The notes: generated by a model from the sequence alone, not told the origin. Shown: positions 1-7,039, counted from the first letter of the stretch. The stretch is DNA of 59,696 bases from a bacterium (GCA_029553225.1 JAKPCP010000060.1:1-59696), one strand, 5' to 3'. Translations and numbers: made by a program.

Positions 1-306
1 ACGAATTGCGATTTTAGCACTTGATTCCGGCAAACCTAAACCATAATAATATCTTGCTCGACCTGTTTTCATTCTCGTAATAATTTGCCCCAAAGAATAA
101 ATAAAAGCCACTTCGTCCGCTTGTTTTATTTTCCCTTCGCCTTTTGTTTCAATCAAAAAATATCGGGCATAATTGTTATGTCTAACCCGAATATCAACGC
201 CGTGATCCCGTAATTCGCCAACTTCTAGATTTCTGCCCCAATTATTCCGAAAAAGCCACTTGACTATTGATTGTTTTACAAATTTTTCACTTATCAATTT
301 TTTCAT
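1..306 (-). CDS. PD-(D/E)xK restriction-endonuclease-fold protein, N-terminal 102 aa (gene runs off the window start)
   Basis: Hand translation from ATG 306-304: MKKLISEKFVKQSIVKWLFRNNWGRNLEVGELRDHGVDIRVRHNNYARYFLIETKGEGKIKQ... It stays open to position 1. D-x14-E-x-K (GVDI...LIETKG) fits the nuclease fold. Absent from the ORF track because it is truncated. Confidence 0.55.
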   Translation of the reverse strand, partial: MKKLISEKFVKQSIVKWLFRNNWGRNLEVGELRDHGVDIRVRHNNYARYFLIETKGEGKIKQADEVAFIYSLGQIITRMKTGRARYYYGLGLPESSAKIAIR

Positions 307-431
307 AATAATTTTTACAAAGTTTCTTACTAATCATTTTCAAGCTATTTTATTGATTAATTAAATTTAAATTTTCTTCTCGTCTCTTCTTTAAACAAAT
401 AAACAAATAGTCCATCCGTAATTTTATTTTA

Positions 432-2654
432 CTATAAATCTAATTCTTTCCATTGATTATCAAAATACATCCAGCGACCCTTGTAATTTTTTTCATCAAT
501 ATTTTTAACAATTCCACCGAAAAGATTCTTACCTTTTTTATTTTCTTCTTTGATGTATCTTTGTAAGCCGCCTGATTTTGAAGTAAAATCGCTTAAATGA
601 ACACTATGTGGATCAAATAAACCTATTTTTCCATCTTTTAATTTCACGATAAAATCAACATAAAAAGGTTTCTTCTCACCATTGTTATACGGTACGGCAA
701 AAAATGTTGCATCTCTATCTCCATTTTTGAACCACCATTCAACCTTTTCTGATTTTTCCAAAAAATCAATAAAAGCTGATTCTGATTTCCATTTTTCGTC
801 GCTAAAAAACGGTTGCATAATTGATTTTTTCGTTTCAACTTTTTTATATTCATCGCTGTAAAATAAAATTTTCGGAATATTCCAATTCGGCACATCAACC
901 ATTTCACTTTTTCTCTTTTCAACTTCTTCTTTATATCTTTCTTTTGTTTTGTCTAAAACATTAACAAAGTGTTGAGAATTTTTATCGTTCAAGACTATTT
1001 GGATAATTTCTTCCCAAACATCACCATACCACATTTTTAATTCTTTTTCAAAAAATTTATAGATTGCTTCTTTAACTCTGCCAACAGATCTATCTTCAGG
1101 ATAAAAAGGGGTTAAATTATTTCTTATAAAAAAATCAAATAATTTTTGCATATCAAAGCCACTTGCTTTTATTTCTTTATCGCCTACAATTCTTACTCCA
1201 GCTAAAGTATCAACATCTTCGGCTTTATAGTCCGAGATAATTTTTAGGTCAATTTTTTTCGCTTTAATATCAATCTGTTCCTTTAAATTGTATTCTTTTG
1301 CCTGTTTCAAAAATATTTCTATAAAAAGTGGCGACAATCTCGTTTTTTCGCGGTGTCTTTTCGGGTAGCACGAAAGTAAATTTAATTTAGGGTCAAAACT
1401 CCTCTTGCTCGTGTAAATAGTGATGTAATCTTTGGCAATATCTTCTTGTATTTCTATATTGTCCAAGTTAGTATAAACATATCCATAGTTCAAAATTTCA
1501 TTCTCATAGTGACCCTTATCTGGCTCTGGCATTCGCATAATTCGGCCGACTGTTTGGATTGAAAAAATAGGACTGTGCCACTCTCTAAACAAAACTAAAA
1601 TTTGCGCTCTCGGACAATCCCAGCCCAAAGCGATTGCCTGCTTAAAAAGCAGCACCTCAACTTCGCTGTCTTGCTTCTCAACGCCTTCTTTATTAATGTG
1701 TTCGCCTGATAGCCAAATGGCAAGTTTATTATTACCCTTTTCTATTGAGATTTTATATTTATTTTTCAAAATACTTTCCACCCGCTCCTTTATTCTATCT
1801 TCCAAACTTGTTTTTCTATCGGGTAATTGAATCAAAACCAAAGGATTAACATTAACTCTCTCTTTTTGAAATTCCTTTATTAATTCCTGTCTTTTTTTCA
1901 TCGCCGCATCTATAACTAATTCTTCACTTCCGCCGCTCAGCTTTTGCGTTTTTATTTTTCCTTCCTTAATAAAATTTTCAAAATTATCATTTAAAATCAC
2001 ACCTTTTTTAATCATTCCTTCCCTCTTAACATCCTCTAACTGAACAAACACTTTTTCGTCTTCATCGGTAATAGTTGCTGGCGTTGCCGTAACCTCAATT
2101 GTTAATTTTGGTCCAATCATTTGAATTAAACCCTGCGAAATTTCACTAGTTGCGTGATGATGGGCTTCGTCGATAATTAAGATAATTTCGCGGCCTTCCT
2201 CCTTTGTTCTCTCTAACACTTTAGACAAGTTAAAATCCAGTTCGTTATCACGGATATAGATATTGTCCGCCCTATTAATGCTTTCCCAATTAAAAAACAA
2301 AATTTCATTCTCTCTAATTTTTCTATCATCTAAATCTTCAAAAAATGAACACTTTAAAACCCGAGTATTTTCAAAATAGCTTTCTAACTTATCTCGGCTT
2401 TGAATATAGAGTTGTCTCGGCGCCGTCCAAATAAAACCCAGCGATTGCCTAACTTCTTTATCATTAACTAGTCGTTTTAAAAATTCGGCCATCATTATTG
2501 TTTTTCCCGACCCTGTCGGCGACTTGAAAACCAATTTTTTACTACCAGAATAACCCAAGAGCCGTTTACTCTTGGCCAATAAATCATCAATTGCATTTTC
2601 TTGATAAATTTTTAGTTGCATGGTTATTTTATTTAATTTATATAAATCGAGCAC
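432..2654 (-). CDS. res: Type III restriction-modification Res-like subunit (SF2 helicase/translocase)
   Basis: 740-aa ORF with helicase motifs SPTGSGKT (I), IIDEAHH (II), TATP (III) and QTVGRIMR (VI). Contiguous with mod on the same strand. Start is GTG 2654 or ATG 2621. Confidence 0.8.
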   Translation of the reverse strand: MLDLYKLNKITMQLKIYQENAIDDLLAKSKRLLGYSGSKKLVFKSPTGSGKTIMMAEFLKRLVNDKEVRQSLGFIWTAPRQLYIQSRDKLESYFENTRVLKCSFFEDLDDRKIRENEILFFNWESINRADNIYIRDNELDFNLSKVLERTKEEGREIILIIDEAHHHATSEISQGLIQMIGPKLTIEVTATPATITDEDEKVFVQLEDVKREGMIKKGVILNDNFENFIKEGKIKTQKLSGGSEELVIDAAMKKRQELIKEFQKERVNVNPLVLIQLPDRKTSLEDRIKERVESILKNKYKISIEKGNNKLAIWLSGEHINKEGVEKQDSEVEVLLFKQAIALGWDCPRAQILVLFREWHSPIFSIQTVGRIMRMPEPDKGHYENEILNYGYVYTNLDNIEIQEDIAKDYITIYTSKRSFDPKLNLLSCYPKRHREKTRLSPLFIEIFLKQAKEYNLKEQIDIKAKKIDLKIISDYKAEDVDTLAGVRIVGDKEIKASGFDMQKLFDFFIRNNLTPFYPEDRSVGRVKEAIYKFFEKELKMWYGDVWEEIIQIVLNDKNSQHFVNVLDKTKERYKEEVEKRKSEMVDVPNWNIPKILFYSDEYKKVETKKSIMQPFFSDEKWKSESAFIDFLEKSEKVEWWFKNGDRDATFFAVPYNNGEKKPFYVDFIVKLKDGKIGLFDPHSVHLSDFTSKSGGLQRYIKEENKKGKNLFGGIVKNIDEKNYKGRWMYFDNQWKELDL

Positions 2655-3750
2655 TTTCTATAGCAGTGTTGTCATCACCCCATAGATCAACGAATTTAAT
2701 ATCAAAAGTGGCATTTCTAGGAATAAAATTTGAAGATGTTTTAAAATTTACCTTCCCGTCTTTATTGATAACTCTTTCTAATAAATCTCGTTTATCTAGA
2801 TCAAATATAGGCTGTTTTCTAAATTCGTCTAATAAAGGTGGGGTAAAATTTTTGATGTTTGCCTCCAATATAATTCTCAATCTCTCGGTATATAATTTAG
2901 TTTTTTTCTCTAATACCTGTTTTATATATTCATCGTCAAGACTAAGAAGTAGTCCAATGCCAATTATCAAGGATTTCCTCACTAACGGAATATACTTTTT
3001 AATTTCCTCGACAAAATTATTATCTATTGGTCCTCCTCCGTGTAAAAGTTTACCCCTGGCTTTTCTTATTGATTTAAATAGTTCTGATTCAACACTTATT
3101 GTATCTACAAATAACTTTTTTATTCCAGCTAATGAAATTGAAGATATTTTGTTTCCGCACTTTTTACAATTTATTTTTCTATCCTCTTCATTTATTTGAA
3201 AAAAATCACATAACAATTCATTTATAGATTCGAGCCCGGTCCAAAACGCGACAAACTTATCAATAAATTTCTGTTCCAAATATCCCTTTCTTAACCAAGA
3301 AATAGCCCTTGCTATTCTTAAATCTTGATTTTCATTTTTATTAAAATTATTAAAGATTTTTTCAAAAATTTCTTTATTGATCAAACTAACATTTCTTTCC
3401 GGAAGAGTGATATAAAATACCTGTTTAAAAGGACGGTTTATCAATCCATCTGTAGCTTCATAGAGACTAATAAATAAAGGTGAGTTAGAGGCAGAAGAAG
3501 TTGAAAAATCTATTAAGTTCAATATATTTTCTACAAAAGTTTTTGCCTTTTCCTCTATTTTTTCTATTGGCATTTGGGGTTCTGCTTCTATATAACAATC
3601 AGCATGCAATCCTTGTTTCTGATCATATAAAATTACTTCATTGTTACCAAAATTAAATTTCCAACCCAAAATCTTATCTTCTTCTATGTCTTTACGACTA
3701 CCTATAGAGTTTGGAGTTTCTATACAATATCTTACAAAATATTTTTTCAT
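2638..3750 (-). CDS. HEPN-like (R-x4-H) protein of unknown function embedded in the R-M operon
   Basis: 370-aa ORF. Its ATG at 3750 lies 5 nt after the mod stop, and its stop at 2638 abuts or overlaps the res start. The centre reads FVAFWTGLESINELL...IRKARGKLLHGG (R-x4-H). No methylase or helicase motifs. Confidence 0.5.
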   Translation of the reverse strand: MKKYFVRYCIETPNSIGSRKDIEEDKILGWKFNFGNNEVILYDQKQGLHADCYIEAEPQMPIEKIEEKAKTFVENILNLIDFSTSSASNSPLFISLYEATDGLINRPFKQVFYITLPERNVSLINKEIFEKIFNNFNKNENQDLRIARAISWLRKGYLEQKFIDKFVAFWTGLESINELLCDFFQINEEDRKINCKKCGNKISSISLAGIKKLFVDTISVESELFKSIRKARGKLLHGGGPIDNNFVEEIKKYIPLVRKSLIIGIGLLLSLDDEYIKQVLEKKTKLYTERLRIILEANIKNFTPPLLDEFRKQPIFDLDKRDLLERVINKDGKVNFKTSSNFIPRNATFDIKFVDLWGDDNTAIESARFI

Positions 3751-3755
3751 AATCT

Positions 3756-5387
3756 CTATTTAAAAATTCTCCTATAAACCTGCAAAATTGCTTCGGGGAT
3801 AGGAGATAGTTTAACCTTTTGTTTTATATCATTAAATTCTTCGTCAAAAGTTTCATCACTTAAAGAAAAAACATAGACGCTGAATTTCCCTTTTATATCT
3901 TTAATTGCTTTTTTGAAAGTTGGAATTGCTAGTTGGTCCCAGATGATACCGGTGTAATGGCTTGCGTTTTTGAAAACTTTAAATCTTTCATTATCAATCA
4001 CTTTTTCAAAAGTTCCTTCTTTAACACAAAGCATTTCGGTTGCTTGTTTGGTAAGTTTTATTTTGTTTTCATCTGTTGGCTCTGCGTCAACAAAATCAGT
4101 TTTGAAGTATTTTAAATTTCCGCCCAAACCCATAACTTTCTGGCCTTTCAAATTTTTATATCCTTCAATAACTTTTTTAATTCGCGGATAACAAACATCA
4201 GTACAAATATTATTTTCATTATTGGTACAAAGAATAAATTGGCGATTACCGCCATCCTCTTTATTAAGTTTTAAAACGGCATGTCCGGTCGTGCCAGAGC
4301 CGGCCATGAAATCTAGCACAATCGCGTTTTTATTATTTATTTTGGATAGTAAATACTTAATTAATCTAACTGGTTTTGGGTTGGGGAAAACATTCTTCTC
4401 TGTAGCAAAAATAGTTTTTAATTCTTTGGTTGCCTCCTCGGTCGTTCCAACCAAACTCGCCGATAAAAAATTGATGGGATTTTTTGTTCTTTCTTTTGTC
4501 AAAAAAATTTTCTCATTTAAAACTCCGCCACTACTAATGTAAATTAATTTATTCTTAAAAAGATGGTTTAATCTGTTTTGTGAAATAAACCACTTTTTAG
4601 TTAGTTTCTTCCCACCGGGCAGTATTAGTGTTTTTCTTGGATTTGGATTACTTTCACTCCATAGAGGTTTTGTTCTCCAAGGACCACGAGGATCATTATC
4701 CATATTCCTATAAACCTTTCCAATATAGTCCTCGCTTAACTTGTCTTTTACTAAATCTGTAATTCTTGATGTTCTAGAATACATAAGTATGTATTCTGTT
4801 GTACTAGAGAAACCATCCTCCTTTTTATTTGAAGGTCTAACTTTCTTTTGCCATATTATTGTAGTTTTCTGATGATTTTCTCCAAATAAATCAGGATAAT
4901 CCATTAATAATTTTAACTGCGCTACTTCGTTATCATCGATCGAAATAAAAATTAAGCCCGTATCTTTTAATAGATTCTTTGCTAACTTCAATCTCTTTTC
5001 CATAAATGAAAGCCATTTTGAATGACGGTAGGCATCTTCTTTGTCAACATATCTATCATTAAAAATAAAATCCTTGTTGCCAGTGTTATACGGCGGATCA
5101 ATATAAATAACATCAACTTTGCCAGCGTGAGTGTAATTTAAAACCGAAAGGGCATGATAATTATCGCCCTCAATCAATAAATTTACGGGCTTGTTTTTAT
5201 CAGTTATTATTTCTTTGTTTTTAGCCTCTTTCAGCACTGGCAGTTTTTCTTTACACATCTCAGCTACTTTTTCAGACTTTTCTTCCCAAACAAGCCCATA
5301 TTTTTTCCGTTTCTTCAATTCTTTTTTTAATCGCTCAATCTCGGCTTTCAATTCTTCAAATTCTGATTTTTTATTGTTCTTAGTCAT
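3756..5387 (-). CDS. mod: Type III R-M Mod subunit, N6-adenine/N4-cytosine DNA methyltransferase
   Basis: 543 aa. Motif IV IYIDPPYNTG precedes motif I DFMAGSGTTGHA (beta-class order). GDNYHALSVL block and N-terminal coiled coil. Confidence 0.85.
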   Translation of the reverse strand: MTKNNKKSEFEELKAEIERLKKELKKRKKYGLVWEEKSEKVAEMCKEKLPVLKEAKNKEIITDKNKPVNLLIEGDNYHALSVLNYTHAGKVDVIYIDPPYNTGNKDFIFNDRYVDKEDAYRHSKWLSFMEKRLKLAKNLLKDTGLIFISIDDNEVAQLKLLMDYPDLFGENHQKTTIIWQKKVRPSNKKEDGFSSTTEYILMYSRTSRITDLVKDKLSEDYIGKVYRNMDNDPRGPWRTKPLWSESNPNPRKTLILPGGKKLTKKWFISQNRLNHLFKNKLIYISSGGVLNEKIFLTKERTKNPINFLSASLVGTTEEATKELKTIFATEKNVFPNPKPVRLIKYLLSKINNKNAIVLDFMAGSGTTGHAVLKLNKEDGGNRQFILCTNNENNICTDVCYPRIKKVIEGYKNLKGQKVMGLGGNLKYFKTDFVDAEPTDENKIKLTKQATEMLCVKEGTFEKVIDNERFKVFKNASHYTGIIWDQLAIPTFKKAIKDIKGKFSVYVFSLSDETFDEEFNDIKQKVKLSPIPEAILQVYRRIFK

Positions 5388-5457
5388 AGTCTTAAATTAT
5401 TCCTTTGTTTTTGAAATAAAGAATTTATATTTAACCACAATTATATGGTCAGCCATT

Positions 5458-5628
5458 CTATATTTTATTTGCCAACTCAATAACATTTTCGCCTTTTTTT
5501 CCGGAGTGTAAAAGTATAGCCAAGAGTTCGGAATTAGAAAGTTTTTCCGGGCCATATTGTATTAACTTCTCTCTTGGCCTTTCTACTTTCGGTAGGTCCT
5601 TAATTTTTTTCTTAATTTTCGCATCCAT
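5458..5628 (-). pseudogene. radC: radC N-terminal fragment (56 codons, JAB/MPN domain missing)
   Basis: Hand translation: MDAKIKKKIKDLPKVERPREKLIQYGPEKLSNSELLAILLHSGKKGENVIELANKI*. This matches the RadC N-terminal signature (ERPREKL...LS..ELLAILL). Full-length RadC is about 220 aa. Confidence 0.6.
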
Positions 5629-5894
5629 AATTATTTTTATAATGGTGGCGTAGCAATATCAACCAATCTTCAATACTTCTATAATAATTGATTTTAATAA
5701 ATTAGTAAATGGGATTTTTTATTATTATTCTCGCAGAGAGGGTTAGGAAAAGAACACCTTTTCCTATAACGCTTTTTGCGAAGAAAAAATAAAATTCGTC
5801 CGCCGAAGCGAGGGGCGAAGCCCAAAGCGAGGCGGAAAATGGAAATTTTACTAAATTGCTGTCTGTCTTGGATTCGAATGAGTTGCCCGAAGGA

Positions 5895-5964
5895 ATTCCC
5901 TCACTTCGTTTAAAATGCGGTAGCTAGGTTCTCACCTGCCCCGCATTCAAAATAAATTTTGCTG
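5895..5964. repeat. 70-bp direct repeat, copy A (51-bp perfect core 5914-5964)
   Basis: Core aatgcggtagctaggttctcacctgccccgcattcaaaataaattttgctg is identical to 6921-6971. The preceding 19 nt match at 13/19. Positions 5924-5945 resemble a tRNA-Gln T-arm and acceptor 3' end. Confidence 0.9.
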
Positions 5965-6018
5965 TGTTTTTAGAATAATTTTAAACTTTTAAAAATATAC
6001 AATTTTCTTCCAATCTGT

Positions 6019-6024
6019 TATAAT
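6019..6024 (+). promoter_or_regulatory. Extended -10 (TGTTATAAT) 7 nt upstream of the ATG at 6032; possible leaderless start
   Basis: tgt(6016-6018)+tataat(6019-6024). No Shine-Dalgarno between it and the ATG. Confidence 0.35.
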
Positions 6025-6031
6025 TAATTAT

Positions 6032-6934
6032 ATGCCTTTATCAATTAAAATTTCTCGCCTATCTAATTTTTTAGTTTTTTCCTCAAAAATAGATAAGACT
6101 GATTTAGTTAAATCTAATTTTAAAAAATATCTATTAGATGAAAAGGTTGTTTTATCTTTTTACGGAAAGAGTGAAGATAAAATTTGGAGAAAAATAGAAA
6201 AAATAATCGGAAAAGAAAATATAAAAGAATTAAAAAAATCTATTAACTCCTTAGAACAAATATTTAATCCATATTGGAGTAAAGCATCTAAACACTTGCT
6301 TTTATGGAAACAATATTTTCAAAATAACCAATTTTTGTTTCAACAAGTTTTTATTGAATTAAAAAAATTAAGCGGAATAAAATATTTCGCAGTTTCTAAA
6401 ATTCCGATTTATCTTATTTCAGATTCGGCAAGCAATAATAAGGAAATTAATGCTTGGTTTTCTTGGACACAAAAAGAAAGTTTTATAGTTGTTGAAATTC
6501 CACTTGATCTTAAAGTGCCTAATAACTTCTTTCCACTGGCTGTTTTAACGCATGAATTTTTTCATTTAACGTTGAGAAAAAATAAAAATCTATTTTTAAA
6601 AATTACTAATATTGCCGAAAAAAACGATAAATTATTAATAAAAATTACAGGAAATATTCCAAACAAAATATTTTTAGAAGAATTATTAATCAGCTCATTT
6701 GTTCCAGAAGGTTATTTAAGCGAAAAATATTTTAATACAAAAGTCGCTTCCTATAATTTAACCCCCAAAGATTTATTGGAATGGCGGAAATTTATCGCAT
6801 ATAAGTTTTATCAAAAGGCGAAAAAATATATCGATAATAATTGGCAAATTGACGAAAATTACCTTAAAGATTTAATTGAGGTTATAAAATTTGCTAAAGG
6901 CATTCCCTCGTTTCGCTCGGAATGCGGTAGCTAG
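6032..6934 (+). CDS. Hypothetical protein with HExxH motif (putative metallopeptidase-like)
   Basis: 300-aa ORF with LAVLTHEFFHLTL (HExxH) and downstream acidic residues (FLEELL). The last 11 codons lie inside repeat copy B. Confidence 0.55.
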   Translation: MPLSIKISRLSNFLVFSSKIDKTDLVKSNFKKYLLDEKVVLSFYGKSEDKIWRKIEKIIGKENIKELKKSINSLEQIFNPYWSKASKHLLLWKQYFQNNQFLFQQVFIELKKLSGIKYFAVSKIPIYLISDSASNNKEINAWFSWTQKESFIVVEIPLDLKVPNNFFPLAVLTHEFFHLTLRKNKNLFLKITNIAEKNDKLLIKITGNIPNKIFLEELLISSFVPEGYLSEKYFNTKVASYNLTPKDLLEWRKFIAYKFYQKAKKYIDNNWQIDENYLKDLIEVIKFAKGIPSFRSECGS

Positions 6935-6971
6935 GTTCTCACCTGCCCCGCATTCAAAATAAATTTTGCTG
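6902..6971. repeat. 70-bp direct repeat, copy B (overlaps the last 3 nt of tRNA-Gln)
   Basis: Offset is exactly 1007 bp from copy A. Contains hairpin aatgcgg(6921-6927)/ccgcatt(6948-6954) and the pseudo tRNA 3' half at 6931-6952. Confidence 0.9.
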
Positions 6972-7039
6972 CGGGGCTAGGATTCGAACCTAGATTAGCG
7001 GTTCCAAAGACCGTTGTCCTACCATTAGACGACCCCGCA
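6969..7039 (-). tRNA. tRNA-Gln (anticodon UUG)
   Basis: Hand-folded 71-nt cloverleaf: TGCGGGG TC GTCT AATGGTA GGAC A ACGGT CTTTGGA ACCGC TAAT CTAGG TTCGAAT CCTAG CCCCGCA G. U1-A72 and G73 are typical of bacterial tRNA-Gln. CCA is not encoded. Confidence 0.9.

Follow-up and report, generated by a model that had tools for sequence, protein, structure and literature searches.

A three-domain HEPN-like protein family at the mod-res junction of a Type III-like restriction-modification operon, with a candidate role in abortive infection

The DNA considered here is a stretch of 59,696 nucleotides from a bacterium (GCA_029553225.1 JAKPCP010000060.1:1-59696; hereafter the window, meaning the whole of this stretch), towards the left end of which three genes are packed together on the minus strand, i.e. 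mod, a gene for a 370-residue protein and res (Table 1). An earlier note, made from the sequence alone, had read these genes as one transcription unit, with a HEPN-like gene wedged between the two genes of a Type III-like restriction-modification (R-M) operon. The open reading frame (ORF) calls bear out this layout, including the coordinates: 5 nt separate mod from the middle gene and, on inspection of the sequence, the middle gene and res are related either by a 17-nt overlap, with GTG 2654 as the start of res, or by a 16-nt gap, with ATG 2621 as the start. The ATG is the likelier start, because alignments with Res orthologues begin no earlier than residue 10-12 of the GTG version. Scans of this AT-rich DNA for terminators and promoters were uninformative: they gave no terminator-like sites between mod, the middle gene and res, and promoter-like matches at about chance level.

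Mod matches the Pfam model N6_N4_Mtase (E 7e-40) and the PADLOC model MTase_III (E 1.4e-101), with a DPPY motif at residue 97 and the S-adenosylmethionine-binding motif DFMAGSGTT. Res matches ResIII/superfamily 2 (SF2) helicase in Pfam (E 4.7e-23) and REase_III in PADLOC (E 7e-17); its helicase motifs (PTGSGKT, DE, TATP and QTxGRIMRMP) are conserved over 68 homologs, as is a C-terminal block, FYxDF...G....D...K. This block lies in the part of Res in which a PD-(D/E)xK endonuclease domain would be expected, but there is no nuclease profile match. At ~730 residues Res is shorter than classical Type III Res proteins. A Mod with methylase motifs and, downstream of it, a ResIII-type Res with intact motifs are what is found in a Type III host operon, and because the Res helicase motifs and C-terminal block are kept across homologs and Mod has both its motifs, the R-M pair looks intact, as judged from its sequence.

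Table 1. Features of the mod-res operon and of the middle protein, in window coordinates.
Feature	Position	Strand	Description
mod	3756-5387	minus	ORF, 543 aa; Type III-class (beta-class) N6A/N4C DNA methyltransferase (Pfam, PADLOC)
Middle gene (HEPN-like)	2638-3750	minus	ORF, 370 aa
res	432-2621	minus	729 aa from ATG 2621; SF2 helicase-type restriction subunit
res, alternative GTG start	432-2654	minus	740 aa
Equivalent of the mod-res slot	2622-3755		
N-terminal alpha/beta domain, aa 1-124	3379-3750	minus	AlphaFold model; unrecognised
Central HEPN-like helical domain, aa 125-285	2896-3378	minus	AlphaFold, Foldseek and ApeA profile match
E174	3229-3231	minus	Conserved acidic residue of helix 2; alignment, HEPN definition
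C195-x2-C198 knuckle	3157-3168	minus	Insert that separates helix 2 from helix 3; alignment
R232-G-K-L-L-H237 (within RGKLLHGG)	3040-3057	minus	R-x4-H at the C terminus of core helix 3; alignment, HEPN definition (PMC3710099)
C-terminal beta-rich domain, aa 286-370	2641-2895	minus	AlphaFold model; unrecognised; P314 near-invariant
Truncated radC remnant	5461-5598	minus	46 aa of the RadC N-terminus, just upstream of mod

In single-sequence scans the middle protein has no meaningful match to Pfam, NCBIfam, PADLOC or PHROGs models or to PDB sequences; as had been noticed from the sequence, no methylase or helicase model (Pfam, PADLOC, NCBIfam) matches it. The NCBI entry for the identical protein is named 'HEPN domain-containing protein [Candidatus Paceibacterota bacterium]'. 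It has 60 close homologs, and with an exhaustive profile search (E<=1e-3) the family grows to 740 representative clusters, the proteins of which almost all have ~370 residues; the names of the distant representatives are all 'hypothetical'. A first profile search of genome contigs with the HEPN alignment gave no relatives, and a further search of a word-indexed database with the profile of diverse members (A2) added neither relatives nor names. Within the searched data the family is found mainly in metagenome assemblies, along with a few metagenome-assembled genomes at NCBI.

A lone R-x4-H in 370 residues is unremarkable by itself. Conservation was therefore counted over 171 full-length members reaching down to ~20% identity. 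Of these, 170 have R232, 169 have H237 and 168 have the exact x4 spacing; neither residue varies in the profile of close homologs (A1), and in A2 they are near-invariant. Position 174, which belongs to the FWTGLE motif of helix 2, is Glu in 169/171 members and Asp in the other two. The R-x4-H segment that the earlier note had singled out is thus real rather than a chance occurrence, since it is conserved across these members, and the invariance of the R and H, which it had proposed to check, holds almost without exception.

The HEPN domain is defined as a four-helix up-down bundle in which R-x4-6-H lies where core helix 3 ends and the H3-H4 loop begins, inserts separate H2 from H3 and helix 2 has a conserved acidic residue (PMC3710099). 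AlphaFold (AF2) models of the full-length middle protein (mean predicted local distance difference test, pLDDT, 89.5; predicted template modelling score, pTM, 0.86) and of residues 125-285 alone (pLDDT 90.1) agree in layout, and in the central domain the helices H1 (144-158), H2 (162-175), H3 (222-237) and H4 (244-268) are predicted, with an insert at 177-217 and a loop at 238-243. The conserved R-x4-H is accordingly placed, in the model, at the end of H3 after an H2-H3 insert, with the conserved acidic residue in H2. When the domain model was compared with Foldseek, the best seven matches were all HEPN proteins, i.e. HepT-type toxins (8yuf, 8xeh and 8xdj; probability 0.87-0.96, template modelling (TM) score 0.54-0.58) and Csm6; MtlR stands lower in the same list. 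With the full-length model nothing significant was found in the PDB, the best match being Csm6 at E 0.34, or in the viral BFVD library.

Profile comparisons point in the same direction and identify a closer relative. The profile built from 60 diverse members, A2, matches the solved defence protein Ec4ApeA (9hxm) with E 2.2e-5, and when a full-length Ec4ApeA-type protein, from plasmid pKP91, was compared by hhalign, the probability was 88% and E 2.8e-6; the diverse profile is required, the close-homolog profile A1 reaching ApeA in the PDB at E 0.98 only. The signature common to the family and ApeA, (W/F)(L/F)R(K/N)G...F..YW..LE, spans helices 1 and 2. Over the same domain there are sub-threshold matches of individual members to Pfam models: to MauJ (PF17419) in 12 of the 60 distant members, from helix 1 to helix 3 (14-20 bits in examples, all below the gathering threshold of 28), to HEPN_Apea in one of 60 (E 0.007) and to a HepT-like model in one of nine rescanned at E<=0.1. 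The window protein itself matches neither MauJ nor, at E<=1, HEPN_Apea (PF18739). Taken with the motif conservation, the modelled placement of the motif and the Foldseek matches with their weak E-values, these results uphold the HEPN assignment of the earlier note: the middle protein very probably has the HEPN fold, with its R-x4-H catalytic signature intact.

We conclude that the nearest characterised relative of the middle protein is ApeA, a single-protein, ligand-activated anti-phage HEPN nuclease of tRNA anticodons (bioRxiv 10.64898/2026.01.26.701840), to which it is distantly related. The two share the R-x4-H of the HEPN domain, the signature over helices 1 and 2 and an insert that splits the HEPN domain before helix 3, both are single polypeptides with extra, unrecognised non-HEPN domains, some ApeA proteins bind zinc, and the ApeA clade has previously been noted inside R-M operons. 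The middle protein nevertheless lies outside the ApeA family as defined, because it has no PF18739 match, differs in size (~370 versus ~600 residues) and domain order (the HEPN domain of ApeA is C-terminal, after its N and Mid domains, and that of the middle protein is central), and has N-terminal alpha/beta and C-terminal beta domains unrelated to the N and Mid domains of ApeA.

The flanking domains, which the earlier note could not recognise, stayed so in our searches: neither the N-terminal domain (Pfam, PDB, BFVD) nor the C-terminal domain (Pfam, Foldseek PDB, BFVD) has a structural or profile match. The polar residues kept in the N-terminal domain of the close subfamily include R7, T12, D43, E74, Y97 and R106, and this domain is a candidate sensor or ligand domain. 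In the insert of the HEPN domain, distant members have a full CxxC...CxxC zinc ribbon (at least four Cys in 22/171 members, some with zinc-ribbon Pfam matches), of which the C195/C198 knuckle of the window protein is, by alignment, the predicted remnant.

The mod-HEPN-res order, with orthologous Mod and Res, occurs in eight lineages, i.e. the window and seven further ones in which the identity of the HEPN protein to that of the window ranges from 84% in the closest homolog (L026) through 71% (L027), 68% (L005-L008), 64% (L028), 62% (L009) and 54% (L012, where the contig stops after the HEPN gene) to 49% (L014). Signs of decay are seen in L026, where res is broken into pieces of 171 and 292 residues (L026:2875-4370), and in a stand-alone copy, that of L020 (L020:7001-8120), which is split by a frameshift. 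The L005-L008 cassettes carry a second cargo gene between the HEPN gene and res (L005:9201-9848), encoding a 215-residue protein with the R-x4-H motif RNSYLH and a weak HEPN_Apea match (E 0.037), so that these cassettes hold two HEPN genes in tandem. The neighbourhood of the mod-HEPN-res cassettes differs at each locus, and the cassette therefore moves as a unit.

Other members of the family have different partners or none of the R-M type. One member with 30% identity (L021:16-2009) has a 4-nt overlap with the end of a Type I hsdS gene (Methylase_S, E 3.7e-15), an independent association with a different type of R-M system. Copies without an R-M partner are found in a CBASS/DUF3800/AAA_5 island (L023), adjoining AGS_C and SMC genes (L024), between genes for a Ymh-family HEPN protein and a NERD nuclease (L010), adjoining a Schlafen/AlbA_2 gene (L003), flanking a Hsp70-like/AAA cluster (L001), between purM-like and hisA-like housekeeping genes (L016, L017 and L020), among unknown or housekeeping genes (L110 and L111) and on integrase-bearing elements (L013 and L029). 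On the two latter elements the HEPN homolog is directly followed by a gene for a 665-residue Peptidase_M48 protein (L013:5260-7257; L029:6584-8581), accompanied by one for a 283-residue unknown protein; the three genes could form a distinct multi-gene system built around the HEPN family. The suggestion that homologs recur between mod and res thus holds for eight lineages, but relatives are also found on their own, within defence islands and behind a Type I hsdS gene.

Analysis of the junction from the side of Res gives a broader view. Relatives of the window Res numbered 127 in species-representative genomes, and the best 80 were kept as loci (L030-L109); with identities of up to 87%, they range over Patescibacteria, Omnitrophota, Ignavibacteria, Nitrospirae, Gammaproteobacteria, Actinomycetota, Planctomycetota and archaea. 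A mod gene is seen upstream of res in 68 of the 80 loci; in ~37 of these 68 it abuts res (-8 to +82 nt), and in 31 an insert of 247-3,109 nt lies between the two genes. The HEPN family is present in 0/80 of these loci. The 31 inserts consist of co-oriented ORFs falling into at least 20 unrelated clusters, among them, as named by Pfam, complete SMODS plus Cap15 CBASS systems (five loci, one archaeal), OLD-type AAA_15 plus TOPRIM nucleases (two loci), DUF3800 (three loci), SLFN_AlbA_2 with HATPase_c_4, Bro-N, a TPR protein and an IS200 transposase; many are unknowns, including a 910-1,033-residue protein at three loci.

The tree of Res proteins has deep branches without cargo and one derived clade with scattered, repeatedly exchanged cargo, the scatter of cargo types indicating frequent swapping. 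HEPN cassettes are not monophyletic on this tree and stand beside cassettes carrying other cargo; the Res of the window is 83% identical to that of L030, the slot of which holds a 910-aa gene instead. In at least 28 related loci a full radC gene lies upstream of mod (e.g. L028:3600-4289), of which the window retains a truncated remnant, and the mobile unit therefore seems to be radC-mod-[cargo]-res. Three archaeal loci, L055 (Aenigmarchaeota) and L099 and L103 (uncultured archaea), carry the mod-res family at 47-69% Res identity, once with CBASS cargo, which indicates transfer of the cassette between domains. The earlier proposal of a three-component system retains the tight, co-oriented packing and the recurrence in eight lineages; an obligate system is not supported, in view of the ~37 operons that lack a middle gene, the 31 that carry unrelated genes, the scatter of cargo and the family members living apart from R-M.

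Our preferred reading, to which we assign a probability of roughly 0.6, is that the middle gene encodes an ApeA-like RNase of abortive infection that acts autonomously, the gene being co-transcribed with mod and res because it occupies the cargo slot of their operon. Its autonomy is supported by the occurrence of homologs without R-M genes, in defence islands, on integrase-bearing elements and among housekeeping genes. With ApeA as the mechanistic template, an infection cue would be sensed by the N-terminal domain, perhaps also by the C-terminal one; RNA would next be cut by the HEPN domain, most plausibly in the anticodon loops of tRNAs as ApeA and PrrC do, with R232, H237 and E174 acting in a composite dimer active site, and translation would halt in the infected cell. 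Co-transcription with mod and res would in this way supply DNA-level restriction and an RNA-level backup from one operon.

Several observations weigh against this reading. No curated HEPN model (Pfam, NCBIfam, PADLOC) matches the window protein, the domain-level Foldseek E-values are all >= 0.29, and the similarity to ApeA is limited to 60 columns over helices 1-2, stopping short of the catalytic helix and motif. The residue that follows R232 is Gly, in a position where HEPN proteins usually have a polar N, H or D, although 51/171 members carry Asn there. Furthermore, all close homologs checked (>=62% identity) sit inside mod-res, as functional coupling to the R-M system would likewise predict. 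The first two of these points, together with the existence of HEPN families, such as MtlR, that bind without catalysis (PMC3710099), would also suit a non-catalytic or non-HEPN helical protein, i.e. an accessory or regulatory protein that binds RNA or DNA and serves the R-M system, for instance, in expression control or target selection. We regard this as very improbable, given that the R, the H, the distance between them and the Glu of helix 2 are kept almost absolutely in 171 diverse members, as a catalytic site would predict, that a middle gene is absent from half of the homologous operons and so does not encode a core R-M subunit, and that members of the family are found far from any R-M genes.

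The close association of the window clade with mod and res raises the alternative of a guard of the type established for PrrC and EcoprrI (PMC3710099; PMC12707154), in which the HEPN protein would be bound and held inactive by Mod and/or Res until phage anti-restriction releases the RNase and so aborts infection. This corresponds to the effector licensed by Res/Mod that the earlier note had proposed. The tight packing of the genes (5-nt and 16-nt gaps) with no terminator between them and the conservation of the arrangement in eight lineages with orthologous partners are consistent with such coupling. In a neighbour-joining tree the cassette-borne HEPN proteins of >=62% identity form one clade, the core of the cassette-borne group, and HEPN and Res distances correlate with r=0.88. 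However, the cassette copies of L012 and L014 group with stand-alone copies, and the correlation was given less weight because it is driven by one divergent locus and because the Res tree, on which the HEPN cassettes are not monophyletic, shows cargo swapping. In addition, the many members that have no R-M partner imply that the family must be capable of self-regulation, complete autonomous systems such as CBASS occupy the same slot, and the ABC-ATPase regulatory domain of PrrC was not found in the middle protein with Pfam. A guard thus appears possible but rather unlikely. A more specific combination, on which we place still less reliance, is that the mod-res junction is a dedicated slot for the exchange of defence effectors (the HEPN family, CBASS, OLD, DUF3800, Schlafen-like and many unknown genes), by recombination in the conserved mod 3' and res 5' regions that flank it, in which the HEPN proteins of the window clade have come to act as Type III guards physically controlled by Res/Mod and set free when phage anti-restriction disables the enzyme; if true, no PrrC-type guard of a Type III system would have preceded it, and it would come from a new three-domain HEPN architecture.

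The base composition of the operon bears on its origin, and on a further alternative. The earlier note had taken the lower G+C content of the middle gene as a hint of a different origin. The gene is indeed lower in overall GC (0.288, versus 0.322 for mod and 0.325 for res), if by a small amount, and in GC at third codon positions (GC3; 0.210 versus 0.285 and 0.293). Against the GC3 of the 52 genes of the window (0.149 +/- 0.037), however, the strong outliers are mod and res, the middle gene being the part of the block nearest to the host value; the whole mod-middle-res block is compositionally foreign in the window. The same dip is present in every orthologous cassette (GC3 of ~0.20-0.26 for the HEPN gene, 0.27-0.33 for mod and 0.26-0.37 for res), and stand-alone HEPN copies in GC-richer surroundings likewise show it. 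As it recurs throughout the family, the dip is a trait of the gene family and gives no sign of a separate recent insertion in the window; a separate origin of the middle gene on the grounds of its low GC was therefore rejected.

A foreign and highly mobile cassette, spread across phyla and into archaea, would also be expected were the HEPN gene a selfish stabiliser, that is, a toxin-like addiction or competition module that aids persistence or spread of the cassette (e.g. by post-segregational killing) rather than an anti-phage gene. In this regard, the best structural matches are to HepT, the HEPN toxins of toxin-antitoxin systems, and some copies are decaying, as the frameshifted HEPN gene of L020 and the truncated res of L026 illustrate. 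We nonetheless think such a role quite improbable: no small MNT-like antitoxin gene adjoins the window gene or most homologs, other occupants of the slot are recognised anti-phage systems, and the three-domain build of ~370 residues is closer to that of sensor-effector defence proteins than to that of minimal toxins. The same contrast separates the middle protein from the HepT/HEPN-MNT systems themselves (8yuf, 8xeh, 8xdj and 5yep), in which the catalytic motif lies in the same place of the matching domain but which comprise toxins of ~130 residues with an MNT antitoxin and share negligible sequence similarity with it. MauJ covers the same domain too, in matches that all remain below the gathering threshold.

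The preferred reading, that of an autonomous RNase carried in a cargo slot, has precedents at the level of both the protein and the operon. The occurrence of HEPN genes within R-M operons has been on record from 2013, when a link to such operons was described for at least 16 HEPN clades, among them 'ApeA/BMEI1217', which is embedded in this way in epsilonproteobacteria (PMC3710099, Anantharaman et al. 2013), and defence genes nested in restriction operons are likewise already known; the conceptual surprise of a HEPN RNase co-encoded with R-M genes is thus modest. PrrC with EcoprrI resembles the present system in having a HEPN RNase gene within an R-M operon and in its two layers of defence, at the DNA and at the RNA level. 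It differs in that its host is a Type Ic hsdMSR operon and not a Type III-like mod-res pair, in that PrrC, like RloC, has an N-terminal ABC-type ATPase ahead of a C-terminal HEPN domain, whereas no ATPase or P-loop model (Pfam, PADLOC, NCBIfam) matches the middle protein, and in that members of the middle-protein family also live without R-M.

Embedded defence genes provide the closer parallel at the level of the operon. They are variable, mostly autonomous genes inside multi-gene defence operons, as exemplified by TgvAB, which is embedded in a Vibrio Type I R-M system (PMC11411939), and by BrxU in BREX, and they act independently of the host system (10.1101/2024.01.29.577857; PMC11411939). 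The principle of 'guilt-by-embedding' has been formalised for Hma, BREX, DISARM and Type I R-M systems (Payne et al. 2024, 10.1101/2024.01.29.577857); the host considered here is a two-gene, Type III-like mod-res operon, which differs from those covered by that survey. HEC-08, a validated embedded protein with a HEPN domain and a Zn-ribbon in which the Rx4-6H histidine is essential (10.1101/2024.01.29.577857), belongs to a different protein family, the middle protein having no DUF3644 and no PADLOC match.

Some features of the surroundings in the window may be mentioned. A partial minus-strand ORF (1-306), which is cut by the left edge and lies 125 nt downstream of res, has a PD-(D/E)xK-like segment (GVDIRV...YFLIETKGEG) and no Pfam match; it may be a further nuclease or defence gene of the same island. 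On the other side, between the cassette and a tRNA-Gln gene (6968-7039, minus strand), lies a plus-strand ORF of 300 residues (6032-6934) with no significant Pfam match, the HExxH-type motif of which, THEFFH, hints at a metalloprotease. GC3 is raised from the left edge to ~6934 (0.21-0.29, compared with the window value given above), ending beside the tRNA gene, which suggests that the block 1-7039 is a genomic island beside a tRNA gene.

The overall results add to knowledge on HEPN proteins a previously unannotated three-domain family, comprising 740 representative clusters for which there is no Pfam, NCBIfam or PADLOC model, and extend the embedding principle to a mod-res operon of two genes and of Type III-like kind, the cargo slot of which is rich and crosses phyla. 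The cargo families that replace one another in this slot number at least 20, some half of them of unknown function, and the slot is therefore a source of new defence candidates by guilt-by-embedding. The HEPN family itself offers clear catalytic residues for mutation and is a candidate anti-phage RNase of candidate-phyla-radiation bacteria, the defence repertoire of which is poorly known.

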